A stretch of DNA of 64,000 nucleotides from Blastocatellia bacterium (GCA_963765495.1 CAVXWP010000009.1:448001-512000), one strand, 5' to 3'. Shown: positions 37,406 through 50,363, numbered from the stretch's first letter. Notes: a model not told the origin generated them from the letters alone. Translations and numbers: made by a program.

Positions 37406-38023
37406 TCAGGGTTGGGCGAGCGCGCTGTTGACTGCCTCATCGAGCACGCGGGCATGCGAATCCGTGTAGCCGATCAGGTGTTTTACGAGTTTTCCGTCGC
37501 GCCCGAAAACGAGCGTTTGCGGGATAGTGTCGTCTTCGCGACCGAGATAATCGAGAAACATTTGATCTGAGGCCATGCCGATTGTGTAATCGATATTGTA
37601 CCGGTCCCTGAAGCGGCGAATGGCATCGGGCGTGGACCTTCCCCGGTCGTCTATATGCAGACCGACCACTTCGAGCCCGCGAGCGCGATTCTGGTCGGCG
37701 ATTCTTACGAGTTGAGGGATTTCTTCTCTACAGGGCGGGCACCACGTAGCCCAGAAGTCGAGCACTACAACCTTGCCGCGATAATTCGACAGATTTATCG
37801 TCGCGCCGTCCATCGTCGGTATGCTGAAATCGCTAACGACGGTCGTAGTCGTATCTGACACGGGCGTGCCCGGCAGCGCAACTCTCGAATCCGTCTTCAC
37901 ATCCACGTGACCGAAAAAAAACACATAGCCTATCGTTGCAACAAGCACGGCGACCACGGCGGTTGCAAGTATGCGACCCGGCGTCCACATCGTCTCATCA
38001 GAGGTGGCATTATCGTCTGCCAT
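37406..38023 (-). CDS. TlpA-family thiol:disulfide oxidoreductase, membrane-anchored
   Basis: VVVLDFWATWCPPCREEIP; N-terminal TM helix. Confidence 0.93.
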   Translation of the reverse strand: MADDNATSDETMWTPGRILATAVVAVLVATIGYVFFFGHVDVKTDSRVALPGTPVSDTTTTVVSDFSIPTMDGATINLSNYRGKVVVLDFWATWCPPCREEIPQLVRIADQNRARGLEVVGLHIDDRGRSTPDAIRRFRDRYNIDYTIGMASDQMFLDYLGREDDTIPQTLVFGRDGKLVKHLIGYTDSHARVLDEAVNSALAQP

Positions 38024-46476: not shown

Positions 46477-46961
46477 GAAGCGGGTTGCGCTGAAGGCAAA
46501 GCCGCCGCAGCGTAGAAGACACACTCCTGCCGTGTTTTTACAATCTTCCTTTGACGCTGCGGCGACGGTATCGGAACAAGCGGGGGGCTTTGTCCGATAG
46601 GGGCGGGGGGCAATACGGGGGGGGGGGCGAATTCAGTTAAAACTTGTATAGAATAAGGTTCAATTCACAGAGACTTATCAAATTCATTCTTAACGATCTT
46701 TACTATAACAATTGCCGTTCCATAACCAGGCTTGAACCTGTCAAAGTCAGTTCGGCCTTTACTGACAGCTTTTATCATTGCCATTCTGATGGAAAACGGT
46801 TTCAAGCGAAAGCGATTTCAATCACATTGAAAGAATTGTTGCGCCTGAAAAATGTTAGATTGACCGAATGTCGGCTTAACCGCGATCCGTTGTAGCTGGT
46901 AAGTCACTCTCTACCAATATCTCGTAGTAGTAAGAATCTGCGCTCATCTCTCCGGCTTTCA

Positions 46962-48188
46962 CTATTTGGCAGCAGCGCCTCTCACTATTTGGCACAATCG
47001 CTCAACACCTTCGATGATTTTTTCGGGCGATTCTTTTGAGAACGCCAGGCGCAGGGTGTTGGCTCCGCTCTCGTCAACGAAGAAGGGCTGGCCCGGCACA
47101 TATGCCACTCCGTGCTCGATAGCAGAAGGCAGCAGCCGGGTCGCATCCAGCCTTCCGGTCAATTTCATCAAGATGAAGAAACCTCCGAGAGGTTGGGTCC
47201 ATTTTGAATCTGTGGGGGCAAAGCGTTCGAGTGCGCCAAGCATAGCTCGGCAACGCGTCTGGTAAAATGCTCGCAACTCGGGCAATCGTCGTTCGACCAA
47301 TCCCGAACGCAGGGCTTCGATGACTATAGCCTGATCAAGCACACTCGAAGAAAGGTCGGCCCCTTCTTTGGCGAGTTCGACCTTGTCGGCAATTGGTTTT
47401 GGTGCTCGCAACCACGCGGTACGAAGGCCGGGAGCCAGCACTTTTGAAAAGCTGCTAAGGTAGACGACGCGCGATGGTCGCAGGGCGGCAAGCGGCTTGA
47501 AACGGTCAGCCTCCGGGGTAAAATAGAGCTCAAAGTAAGGATCATCTTCTATAATGAGAAGGTCATACTCGTCTGCTACTTCGATCAATTGCGCGCGTCG
47601 ATCTGAGGTGAGGGTCACGCCCGAGGGGTTTTGAAAATTCGGGATCGTATAGATGCACTTTATCCTGCGTCCGGCGGCGCGCAAGCGATCAATCTGCTCT
47701 TTGAGATCGCTTATGATTATCCCGCTTTCATCCTGGCGCACGCCTACGAGTTCAGCCTGTGCATTATGAAGAGCTACCGTCCCGCCTATGTAACTGGGAA
47801 GCTCTACAAGCGCCACATCGCCGGGATCAATGAGTACGCGAGAGATCAGGTCCAGCCCCTGCTGCGAGCCCGTAGTCATTACAACCTCTTCCGTGGTTAC
47901 TCCCTCAATCCCCCGCTCAAGCATAGTCTTTACGACCGCTTCGACCAGCTTGCTTTGTCCTCGCGTAGGCCCGTACTGAAGGGCGAACCTTCCGCGCTCG
48001 CTTATGACACGCGATGCAATTTCGGCCAGTTCTTCAACGGGAAAAGTCTCGGCGCTTGGCGCACCGGCCGCGAGCGAAATCACATCGCTACGGCCAAGCA
48101 ATTGAGTCAGCTTTCTGATGGCATTCGGACGCATGGTTCGTCCAGTGGTCGAGAATAGATTTTCGTATCCCGGTTCGGTTTCAATCAT
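46962..48188 (-). CDS. PLP-dependent class I aminotransferase (LysN/2-aminoadipate transaminase-like)
   Basis: TTGSQQGLDL, IPNFQNPSG, EDDPY, SFSKVLAPGLR. Confidence 0.93.
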   Translation of the reverse strand: MIETEPGYENLFSTTGRTMRPNAIRKLTQLLGRSDVISLAAGAPSAETFPVEELAEIASRVISERGRFALQYGPTRGQSKLVEAVVKTMLERGIEGVTTEEVVMTTGSQQGLDLISRVLIDPGDVALVELPSYIGGTVALHNAQAELVGVRQDESGIIISDLKEQIDRLRAAGRRIKCIYTIPNFQNPSGVTLTSDRRAQLIEVADEYDLLIIEDDPYFELYFTPEADRFKPLAALRPSRVVYLSSFSKVLAPGLRTAWLRAPKPIADKVELAKEGADLSSSVLDQAIVIEALRSGLVERRLPELRAFYQTRCRAMLGALERFAPTDSKWTQPLGGFFILMKLTGRLDATRLLPSAIEHGVAYVPGQPFFVDESGANTLRLAFSKESPEKIIEGVERLCQIVRGAAAK

Positions 48189-48202
48189 AAGGAGGCCGCC
48201 AT

Positions 48203-48760
48203 TTATTTTTTATCCGAAGCAGTTGTAAATACCAGTTCCACATCAAGTTTAGGTTGAACCGGATCATTCGATTTAATAGTCACTTTCTTGGTGTGTTCTC
48301 CGGGAGCGATGCCCGTGTTGACCTTGACTTTGATTGTGCCCGCCTTACCAGGCGGGAGGACTTTCGGGAAGTCCACGGTGGTGCATCCTCAGCTAGGTTC
48401 GACGGCTTCTATCTTGAGTTTCTTAGTGCCGTTATTTTTCACCACGAACGTACGCGTAAGCTCCTTATTCTGCGGCTGTTTGCCAAATTCGAGCCGTTTG
48501 ACCGGGACTACCAGTTTAGGGCCATCTTTCTCGCCGGCCCCGGTCGATGTCGCAGCCTCCGGCTGAACTTCGGGCGCTGCCGCTTCGGATGAGCCTGTAT
48601 CTGATGTGGCCTGCGGCGTGCCGTTTTCCGTCACTATAGGCTGTGACGGCCCGGCATTGGTATTAGCCGTATCCGAGCCTTCGGGTGGTTTACTGCACGC
48701 AGCAGCCAGGGCTGCCGCCAAGATTAGCATCAGGTAAAAAGGTCTAATTCGTTTTATCAT
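48203..48760 (-). CDS. DUF1573-domain lipoprotein with in-frame UGA, putative selenoprotein (185 aa)
   Basis: Lipobox AAAC; F..KN.G...L.I..V.PS-[TGA 48391-48389]-GCTT...LPPGK.G.I.V...SNDP; frame continues 61 codons to TAA. Confidence 0.85.
48339..48374 (-). promoter_or_regulatory. Candidate bacterial SECIS hairpins
   Basis: GGACUU-CCCGA-AAGUCC, then CCCGCCU-GGUA-AGGCGGG, just 3' of the UGA. Confidence 0.5.
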
Positions 48761-48806
48761 CGCAGGAATAATTTAGCATGGAATAGCCGCGCAATAGAAC
48801 GGCGAA

Positions 48807-49184
48807 TCACTCGCTTTCAGAAAGCGTGACGACGGTGGCACCCCAGCCCCCTGCATCCACAGGCGCGTCGCGGAACTCGGCTACATAGGGAGTGCGCGCA
48901 AGAATAGAGCGCACGATTTCACGTTGGACGCCCACGCCCTTGCCATGAATTATTCGCACCCAGCGTATGCGGCGGCGGCGCGCTTCTTCCAGGTAATCTT
49001 CGACAACAGCGCGCACCTGTCGCGGCGGAATCGAGTGCAGATCAATTACGTCACGAAACTCAACGAGCACAGGATCGGGGAAAGGATTGAGCGGATCAAA
49101 CGCCTCGTCATCCTCCAACTCATTTCGCTGCTCGTTTTCGAACCGGTTTCTGCGCAGCGCCCTCAGCAAGCGACCAAAGATCAT
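48807..49184 (-). CDS. Smr/MutS2-domain protein
   Basis: IDLH, VRIIHGKGVG, GGWGATVV. Confidence 0.92.
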   Translation of the reverse strand: MIFGRLLRALRRNRFENEQRNELEDDEAFDPLNPFPDPVLVEFRDVIDLHSIPPRQVRAVVEDYLEEARRRRIRWVRIIHGKGVGVQREIVRSILARTPYVAEFRDAPVDAGGWGATVVTLSESE

Positions 49185-49292
49185 ATTGAGATCATATTTA
49201 TGTTCCTGAAATGATTCAACCGCGCGGTGGTTCCGGGTCGGGGAAGAGATTAGAGAGAGCAGAGAGTATCTGTTCAGAAAGGGAGAAAATTT

Positions 49293-49353
49293 GCCACAGA
49301 GACACAAAGACACAGAGAAATTTTATAATCTTTTCTCTGTGACTCTGTGGCTA
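49293..49353. repeat. Inverted octamer element, copy 2
   Basis: GCCACAGA-GACACAAA-GACACAGA...CTCTGTGACTCTGTGGC. Confidence 0.85.
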
Positions 49354-49426
49354 CTGCTGGACTCTTACCGCAGAGAAGCATTCTTGATACTGCTCGTTTT
49401 CGGTGTTCCACTGCGCCGGGATATTC

Positions 49427-49840
49427 TTATCTGGGTTTATTCTCTGCCGCCTGAAGCGTTCTCATATTTGAGTTCTCTTCTTCAGAATTCACCTTTATCA
49501 CGACATCGCCCGGGCGAACCAGCCCGAGGTTTTGTCTTGCGATTGATTCAATAAAGCGCGGGTTGGTCTTCAGTAATTTGACCTCGTTGGCCAACCTCTC
49601 GGTTTCGATCTTCAGGTCTTCGACCCGTTGCGCGGCAGCTTGATTCTTACTTATGGCCGCCTCGATCTCTTCGCCCGTGCGCCAGTAGGCGGATACGCAA
49701 AGAGCAGCGGCGCTCAGAATTATCATAGCAATCAAACCATCTATTAGACGGTGAGAATTGACTTTCTGTTTCATGATGTGGCTCACCCTTGTGGATGAGT
49801 TTAATTGATTGACCAGTAATGTATTAACCGCTTGACTCAC
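49427..49840 (-). CDS. Septum formation initiator (FtsB/DivIC family)
   Basis: TM helix plus coiled coil, IESIARQNLGLVRPGD; GTG start after GGAGG. Confidence 0.88.
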   Translation of the reverse strand: MSQAVNTLLVNQLNSSTRVSHIMKQKVNSHRLIDGLIAMIILSAAALCVSAYWRTGEEIEAAISKNQAAAQRVEDLKIETERLANEVKLLKTNPRFIESIARQNLGLVRPGDVVIKVNSEEENSNMRTLQAAENKPR

Positions 49841-49878
49841 CTGACACCTCCAAACTTGATCGCCAGCAACCACGGCCC

Positions 49879-49887
49879 TTATCCACA
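49879..49887 (+). promoter_or_regulatory. DnaA box
   Basis: Perfect TTATCCACA; near-matches at 49790-49798 and 50157-50165. Confidence 0.5.
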
Positions 49888-50363
49888 CCCGGGTCCGCAG
49901 AGACAAGTGCGCTCATCAGCGAAATTTACCCGCTAATCTGTATGATGTTTTATTTCTTGATTAACTATTTAGCCTTTGAAGGCAAGAGCGATACTAAGTT
50001 TGTTTGAACCTGTTTTTCTCTTCTTAAGTGGACGTCAAGACTCCTGTGGGGGACAGGCTTGCTGACAGGTTGGGACTTTACCACCTTTCGCCTGGCAGTG
50101 CAACACTTTTTTTTTGAATATTTCAAAGCGGCAAGTTGACGTTCTACTTTAACAGTTTATTCACGCTCTCGATCTTCTGAAACTGCGAGGCCAGACGACC
50201 GATTGCAAATGAATGGTTGGGAACCGGCTCCGCTTTGGATCAGATATGATCTTGCGGATACGGTCTCTTATTGCGAGCCGACCTTAAAATCATTATGCTT
50301 TGTGACTGCCGAGCGATACGGCTCAAAATCGGATGGTTTAAAAACATTTGGAGGTACATACTT

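Follow-up and report, generated by a model that had tools for sequence, protein, structure and literature searches.

The window analysed here is a 64,000-nucleotide stretch of a Blastocatellia bacterium assembly (GCA_963765495.1, CAVXWP010000009.1:448001-512000), with positions counted from its first letter. Its minus strand carries, at 48203..48760, a gene of 185 codons closed by a TAA (48205..48203) and interrupted at codon 124 by an in-frame TGA (48389..48391, minus strand). With TGA translated as U, 48760..48203 reads ...LKIEAVEPS-U-GCTTVDFPKVLPPGKAGTIKVKVNTG...SNDPVQPKLDVELVFTTASDKK, 185 residues in all. Under translation table 11, the same frame gives an ORF of 123 aa (48760..48392) that ends in ...AVEPS and is stopped by the TGA (48391..48389), past which 61 further codons, GCTTVDFPKVLPPGKAGTIKVKVNTG...VFTTASDKK, run up to the TAA. 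The TGA coincides with the first Cys of the DUF1573 S-C-G-C-T motif, making it the first position of U-G-C; Cys-containing orthologues read S-C-G-C-T there. A sequence-only reading of this DNA had proposed both the read-through frame and the placement of the TGA on the first Cys of SCGCT, and all of its elements were recovered at these positions on the minus strand.

The gene is flanked on the same strand by two conserved neighbours. Downstream, after a gap of 14 nt, lies a class I/II aminotransferase gene (46962..48188, minus strand; Pfam PF00155), which is syntenic and has no evident functional link; upstream, after 46 nt, lies a gene for a Smr-domain protein (48807..49313, minus strand; Pfam PF01713), also syntenic. 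By tblastn, the aminotransferase gene adjoins the gene in 21 and the Smr gene in 16 of 22 orthologous loci, which comprise the window's own locus and 21 from 20 same-family relatives, one of them with two copies. Compared along its full length with Rfam at gathering thresholds, the window matched no family; a tRNA scan of it found none, and a promoter and terminator scan of positions 46800-50200 gave counts close to shuffle expectation, with nothing usable.

The predicted protein has three parts. Residues 1-22 (48695..48760, minus strand) form a signal peptide with a lipobox, L-A-A-A-C22-S, in which Ser occupies position +2; the lipobox Cys is present in all 18 orthologues whose sequence includes the N-terminus, 15 of them recognized by regular expression with the pattern [LVI][ASTVI][GAS]-C and 3 (L026, L029, and L030) by eye. 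Approximately residues 23-80 (48521..48694, minus strand) are a low-complexity linker rich in Pro, Ala, Ser, Thr, Asn, and Gln, as delimited in the alignment; across orthologues, this linker is 55 to 110 residues long, varies in both length and sequence, and is followed by one domain of about 100 residues. That domain, DUF1573, is Ig-like, spans residues 88-170 (48251..48499, minus strand), and extends across the TGA. It matches Pfam PF07610 with 72.6 bits over residues 88-170 (gathering cut-off, 26.1) and PF22544 (HYDIN/VesB Ig-like) with 47.9 bits. Positions invariant in an alignment of 16 sequences include U/C124, G125, C126, N109, G111, P132, K133, P137, G138, D166, and P167; His156 is common, not invariant.

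Residues 76-185 were modeled with AlphaFold2 from a 27-row alignment, giving seven strands at a mean pLDDT of 90.8. Counted by model residues, the strands spanning 40-47 and 51-55 are linked by a turn of three residues; Sec would occupy this turn, and Cys126 is the first residue of the strand after it. Foldseek matched the model to PapD/ASH-like Ig domains, with HYDIN, the C-terminal domains of VesB and VesC, and 2qsv, an uncharacterized Porphyromonas protein (TM score, 0.77), as the best matches; none of these is a known redox or metal protein. A single-sequence search of the PDB gave nothing meaningful, and a profile search of the PDB returned only HYDIN-type Ig repeats and 2qsv (E = 4.8e-4), with no solved redox or metal protein. 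The earlier description of the product as an exported, Ig-like lipoprotein agrees with both the 18 of 18 lipoboxes and the PapD/ASH-like beta-sandwich of the model. Among the best 150 library representatives, 79 contain at least one CxC, nearly always CGC; the giant multi-repeat proteins have no CxC.

The genome (7.3 Mb, 17 contigs, 97.9% complete) encodes the machinery for Sec decoding. A tRNA-Sec was found with 71.1 bits and the anticodon tca (ARAGORN), as were selA (566 bits), selB (374 bits, contig C8), and selD (386 bits), all of which exceed their curated cut-offs; the set selA/selB/selC/selD, proposed by the sequence-only reading as a check, is thus all present. TGA ends 1,526 of the 2,991 mechanical ORFs of at least 300 aa and is the commonest ordinary stop in the genome. 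TGA also terminates many of the orthologues, and on both counts a global reassignment of the codon is ruled out. The true stop is TGA in orthologous loci L024, L025, L027, L028, L030, L031, L034, L036, L041, and L042, where a recoded UGA and a terminating UGA would stand in the same mRNA, about 58 codons apart.

We searched 41 genomes, the window's own and 40 relatives, and obtained a match of some kind in 29, including all 24 of the same family. Strong hits were taken as orthologues, and weaker hits, which are paralogues, were left out. On this basis, the orthologue occurs in 20 of the 24 same-family genomes and in 0 of 5 from a sister family, and the orthologue group was found in only one family among the relatives searched. 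The codon for the first Cys of the motif is TGA in 20 of the 22 orthologous loci, which span many genera, and TGC (S-C-G-C-T) in 2. Ten further Cys forms from the protein library comprise 9 with CGC and 1 with CSC. Both genomes with a TGC form keep selA and tRNA-Sec, so the change between TGA and TGC is specific to the gene, and loss of Sec decoding in the Cys-form genomes is ruled out.

The stretch of 52 codons that follows the TGA has a mean dN of 0.222 and a mean dS of 1.256, with a median dN/dS of 0.184, values calculated from 166 of the 171 pairs among 19 Sec forms, with one short locus and the two Cys forms excluded. Judged from these substitution rates, the coding sequence after the TGA is under purifying selection, and in the alignment, no part of the protein is better conserved than the peptide that follows the TGA. 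A comparison of homologues for TGA or TGC at this site and for downstream coding had been suggested beforehand, and its outcome, 20 TGA, 2 TGC, and a dN/dS of about 0.18, fits the suggestion. A tree of 31 orthologues and 2 outgroups has 4 well-supported inner branches of 30; the best tree contains 9 changes between Sec and Cys, only 1 of which is forced by supported branches, and this poor resolution means that no direction of change can be claimed. In the same poorly resolved tree, Cys forms tend to have longer end branches than Sec forms (approximately 0.3-0.9 versus 0.02-0.3), with one Cys row of length 0. The longer Cys branches would fit a relaxed constraint once an overlapping selenocysteine insertion sequence (SECIS) element is dispensable.

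These comparisons make it highly probable (about 0.93) that the UGA is genuinely read as Sec and that the gene encodes a DUF1573 lipoprotein of the already known UxC kind. UGA codon 124 would be decoded as Sec by the genome's own SelA/SelB/SelD/tRNA-Sec system, directed by an RNA element in the coding sequence just downstream that consists of a 6-bp hairpin followed by a 7-bp hairpin, with the G-G-U-A loop of the latter as the likely SelB contact. The product would be an exported selenoprotein of 185 residues with a lipid anchor at Cys22, a flexible linker of about 55 residues, and a single DUF1573 domain of the PapD/ASH-like Ig type that presents Sec124-Gly-Cys126 in a turn between two strands. 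Alternatively, the TGA could be a true stop, resulting from pseudogene formation or an assembly error or terminating a 123-aa product, with a downstream 57-aa GTG ORF that is separate or untranslated. Standard gene calling does end at the TGA, as in library protein P0002, but truncation there would end the protein in the middle of a beta-sandwich domain, and homologues have Cys at the TGA position. The recurrence of TGA at this codon in 20 of 22 loci spread over many genera, the dN/dS of 0.18 beyond it, and the presence of both Sec machinery and covarying hairpins also stand against a true stop, a reading that is already contradicted by these comparative sequence data and that we consider extremely improbable. 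The sequence-only reading had favored Sec, naming a genome devoid of Sec machinery and a TGA unique to this assembly as grounds for abandoning that view; the machinery, the 20-to-2 distribution of TGA and TGC, the purifying selection, and the covarying hairpins all bear the Sec reading out.

The two hairpins follow the UGA closely. Hairpin 1 (48358..48374, minus strand) has 6 bp and the loop CCCGA; it begins 15 nt after the UGA, and its loop starts 21 nt after it, leaving 20 nt between. Hairpin 2 (48339..48356, minus strand) is a perfect 7-bp stem, CCCGCCU/AGGCGGG, with the loop GGUA (48349..48346), the first G of which is the 40th nt after the UGA. The distance from UGA to loop is accordingly 39 nt, or 38 nt if the closing U-A pair is open. 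Folded alone, hairpins 1 and 2 have energies of -5.4 and -13.7 kcal/mol, respectively. Both hairpins, including the perfect 7-bp stem with a GGUA loop 40 nt after the UGA, had been described from the sequence beforehand and are present; the accompanying remark that the second lies slightly beyond the usual SECIS spacing also holds, with 39 nt between UGA and loop against 16 to 37 nt in the consensus.

The structure tested covers the 60 nt after the UGA, with hairpin 1 in columns 18-23/29-34 and hairpin 2 in columns 36-42/47-53. Over this length, the alignment of the 20 Sec forms is gap-free; pairing holds in 96.4% of 247 cells, and changes on both sides occur in 4 of the 13 pairs. In 500 shuffles of the 20 Sec forms, none reached the observed percentage paired, number of pairs changed, number of cells changed, or covariation score. 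Slid controls of the same sequences were 26 to 60% paired, a comparison in which the tested structure is favored because it was read from the same sequences. Pair 38-51 illustrates the changes, being CG in 9, GC in 6, and AU in 3 of the 20 Sec forms. With 5 paralogues of the OS_HP2 type added (25 sequences), 95.5% of 312 cells are paired and 5 of 13 pairs have changed on both sides; pair 38-51 is then CG in 14, GC in 6, and AU in 3, and pair 39-50 is GC in 16, UA in 5, and AU in 1. In this larger set, 2 of the 6 pairs of hairpin 1 have changed on both sides, including a G-C to C-G change at its base. Hairpin 1 is paired in 98.6 to 99.1% of cells, and the loop residues G43 and G44 of hairpin 2 are invariant in all 25 sequences. 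RNAalifold independently predicts the same two hairpins. Most of the unpaired cells of one sequence, G007, are explained by a one-base register shift that keeps a 7-bp stem with a GGC loop. A measure of further pair types was not above shuffles, being reached by 431 of 500 for the 20 Sec forms and by 206 of 500 with the paralogues added. The hairpins overlap the conserved peptide FPKVL-PG-AG, and their conservation is partly at the protein level.

The window's own 63-nt fold is unremarkable (z = -1.52; 18 of 200 shuffles fold as well), so the weight of the RNA evidence comes from the comparison with relatives. The two Cys orthologues do not have these hairpins and fold into other structures of -8.8 and -15.3 kcal/mol, with z scores of +0.19 and +1.50. 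In Cys forms from the library, the peptide that follows the motif varies more, as in FPKTIAPGREKA and FPKVIAAGKSGA.

In the relevant passages of PMC13188914, the consensus bacterial SECIS model has a stem of 4 to 16 bp, a UGA-to-loop distance of 16 to 37 nt, an energy of at most -7.5 kcal/mol, and a required G within the first two loop positions; the distance range is said to hold for "most" elements. Hairpin 2 resembles this model in its location inside the coding sequence right after the UGA, its 7-bp stem, its 4-nt loop starting with G-G-U, and its energy of -13.7 kcal/mol, which is below the -7.5 limit. It differs in its spacing of 39 (or 38) nt and in that a second conserved hairpin occupies the gap. 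We infer that hairpin 2, rather than hairpin 1, binds SelB and that the folded hairpin 1 serves as a spacer that places hairpin 2 within reach. With hairpin 1 folded, the unpaired nt between the UGA and the base of hairpin 2 would number only 14 + 1; the rule from Escherichia coli is about 11 nt to a minimal SelB-binding stem.

The roles could be reversed, with hairpin 1 as the working SECIS and hairpin 2 as a second conserved element, such as a ribosome-pausing structure. The loop of hairpin 1, at 20 nt, lies at the canonical distance from the UGA, its stem is almost fully paired with compensatory changes, and five other TGA genes of this genome each have a single hairpin whose loop starts with G and lies 18 to 25 nt after the UGA (distances read from folds). 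The loop of hairpin 1, however, lacks a conserved G and in several orthologues is devoid of G (UCCAA, CCCCA, and UCCCA), whereas the published model wants G in the first two loop positions (in the passage of PMC13188914 on the model) and the loop of hairpin 2 starts with G-G in all 25 sequences. Hairpin 1 alone is also weak, at -5.4 kcal/mol against the -7.5 limit. We regard the reversed assignment as unlikely.

DUF1573 selenoproteins have been described before, a point that the sequence-only reading had left undecided. Two genes were reported as OS_HP2 from an Olavius symbiont metagenome by Zhang and Gladyshev in 2007 (PMC1976440), with no Cys homologue in that data set according to the relevant passage. 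In the GOS table of 2008 (PMC2398784), pfam07610 appears as UxC with 2 Sec and 354 Cys sequences, and the reviews PMC9312934 and PMC13188914 include, in their lists, a "DUF1573 domain-containing protein" with UGC. By its legend, the SECIS figure of PMC1976440 shows five of the six new families, with OS_HP2 absent, and the passages of that paper and related papers on this subject contain no printed description of an OS_HP2 SECIS. A full-text literature search for DUF1573 returned 4 papers, none of which deals with function. The gene is not new in kind, as DUF1573 selenoproteins with UxC or UGC have been in print since 2007; it is a new, mis-called branch of that family.

NCBIfam model NF041425, "OS_HP2 family (seleno)protein," has a curated cut-off of 100 bits, and the window protein scores 81.9 bits, below it. 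The window protein shares with OS_HP2 the Pfam domain and the Sec position, U124-G-C126 fitting the U-x-C motif at the place of the DUF1573 C-G-C. The two-hairpin element with a GGU loop and the same spacing recurs in 5 of 5 Acidobacteriota paralogues. The design is seen in both Sec paralogues of the window's own genome and in OS_HP2-type paralogues of four other Acidobacteriota genomes. Three Sec forms of the Thermodesulfobacteriota type also share the GGU-loop hairpin at the same spacing, with a less clear first hairpin. Unlike its paralogues, which are multidomain proteins of approximately 360 to 440 aa, the window protein is short, its lipobox and long disordered linker being followed by a single domain.

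One paralogue of the window's own genome, on contig C8 (L091:2289-3383, minus strand), is a bona fide OS_HP2 selenoprotein of 365 aa with U-G-C, 101.7 bits against NF041425, and a two-hairpin SECIS. The 30 relatives of it found in named genomes comprise 7 TGA forms, 21 Cys forms, and 2 without CxC; the 7 TGA forms belong to 4 Blastocatellia and 3 Thermodesulfobacteriota or "delta proteobacterium" metagenome-assembled genomes. A GGU-loop hairpin at the same spacing is possible in all 7. In the 3 of the Thermodesulfobacteriota type, this hairpin either has imperfections or differs from the minimum-energy fold of the full stretch, and the first hairpin is weaker. The second paralogue, on contig C2 (L092:1964-3184, minus strand), is more divergent, an exported protein of 407 aa with an in-frame TGA in ...SPV-U-C-SAVDF... 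and 41 bits against NF041425. Its Sec adjoins a Cys and does not form U-G-C, a long insertion interrupts the Ig-like domain, and DUF1573 scores 22.6 bits, below the 26.1 cut-off. Its two-hairpin element places a GGUC loop 42 nt after the UGA. Several relatives among the 41 genomes searched have comparable frames, each with one TGA. The contig C2 paralogue may be an uncatalogued variant.

The design is thus kept in two Acidobacteriota paralogue lineages, and the spacing of the GGU hairpin is found in Thermodesulfobacteriota-type sequences as well, which suggests one old Sec-plus-SECIS module inherited through the family. Tentatively, DUF1573 selenoprotein genes might have a two-part SECIS class of their own, in which a G-less spacer hairpin precedes a SelB-binding G-G-U hairpin 38 to 39 nt from the UGA and the folded spacer aids SelB reach; we would not call this proposal probable. 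If true, a two-part SECIS could account for the failure of SECIS-based searches and gene callers to detect these genes. A two-hairpin element with conserved spacing offers a clean natural test of the UGA-to-SECIS distance rule, and a conserved two-hairpin SECIS with a spacing beyond the consensus range is the only part of these results that might surprise a specialist.

Sec in place of one Cys of an exposed C-x-C argues for chemistry at the site and against a structural disulfide. C-x-C motifs active in thiol-disulfide chemistry include the CPC of Mia40, the CGC tail of Erv2, and CGC peptide mimics of protein disulfide isomerase, and the N-terminal domain of DsbD is an Ig-like extracytoplasmic redox domain. 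The window protein resembles these in having two redox-capable residues, with one residue between, exposed in a turn; it differs in that no sequence or fold match to any of them surfaced, and the comparison is one of analogy only. By this analogy, the protein could well be a tethered extracytoplasmic redox module in which U-x-C cycles between selenol/thiol and selenenylsulfide, a reading that we favor over metal binding at somewhat short of even odds. A selenolate and a thiolate two residues apart also make a good soft-metal site, and the exposed Sec-Gly-Cys might instead chelate Cu(I), Hg(II), Cd, or a similar metal in the cell envelope without redox chemistry. Against metal binding, the flanks of about 12 kb on each side are free of copper, mercury, and metal-transport genes, the conserved neighbours are the aminotransferase and the Smr protein, and the sole candidate for a third ligand nearby, His156, gives way to Lys or Arg in several orthologues; metal chelation is possible, and we hold it to be the less likely of the two. 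The neighbourhood gives no hint of a redox or metal pathway, being limited to housekeeping genes (aminotransferase, Smr, FtsB/DivIC-like, BamB-like, and MoxR).

The gene had been expected to be easily mis-annotated as truncated. The corresponding product in a public protein library, P0002, has 113 aa and ends at the TGA, and two relatives are likewise cut there. The 123-aa fragment, the 57-aa fragment, and a Cys-substituted read-through had no exact match in a collection of 15 billion proteins. A word search of sequencing runs listed no RNA run and matched only two DNA runs, with word shares of 0.09 and 0.06. Because members of this branch fall below the NCBIfam cut-off and are cut at the UGA, annotations of Blastocatellia-type soil Acidobacteria probably omit them or list them in truncated form, and selenoproteome counts for these bacteria are likely too low.

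The window's own genome contains at least 3 DUF1573 genes with a Sec codon. The five other TGA genes are one molybdopterin-oxidoreductase and four AhpC/TSA-type genes (C10:125024-126382, C17:52348-52719, C9:196968-197339, C1:836420-836797, and C1:123244-123582), each of which has a single hairpin after its one in-frame TGA. Added to the three DUF1573 genes, they point to a sizeable predicted selenoproteome in a Blastocatellia-type acidobacterium. Within the window, the surveyed stretch from 36 to 60 kb has a single redox-type gene, which encodes an AhpC/TSA or Redoxin thioredoxin-like protein (37409-38023, minus strand); it is a Cys form with no TGA and lies about 10 kb from the DUF1573 gene.
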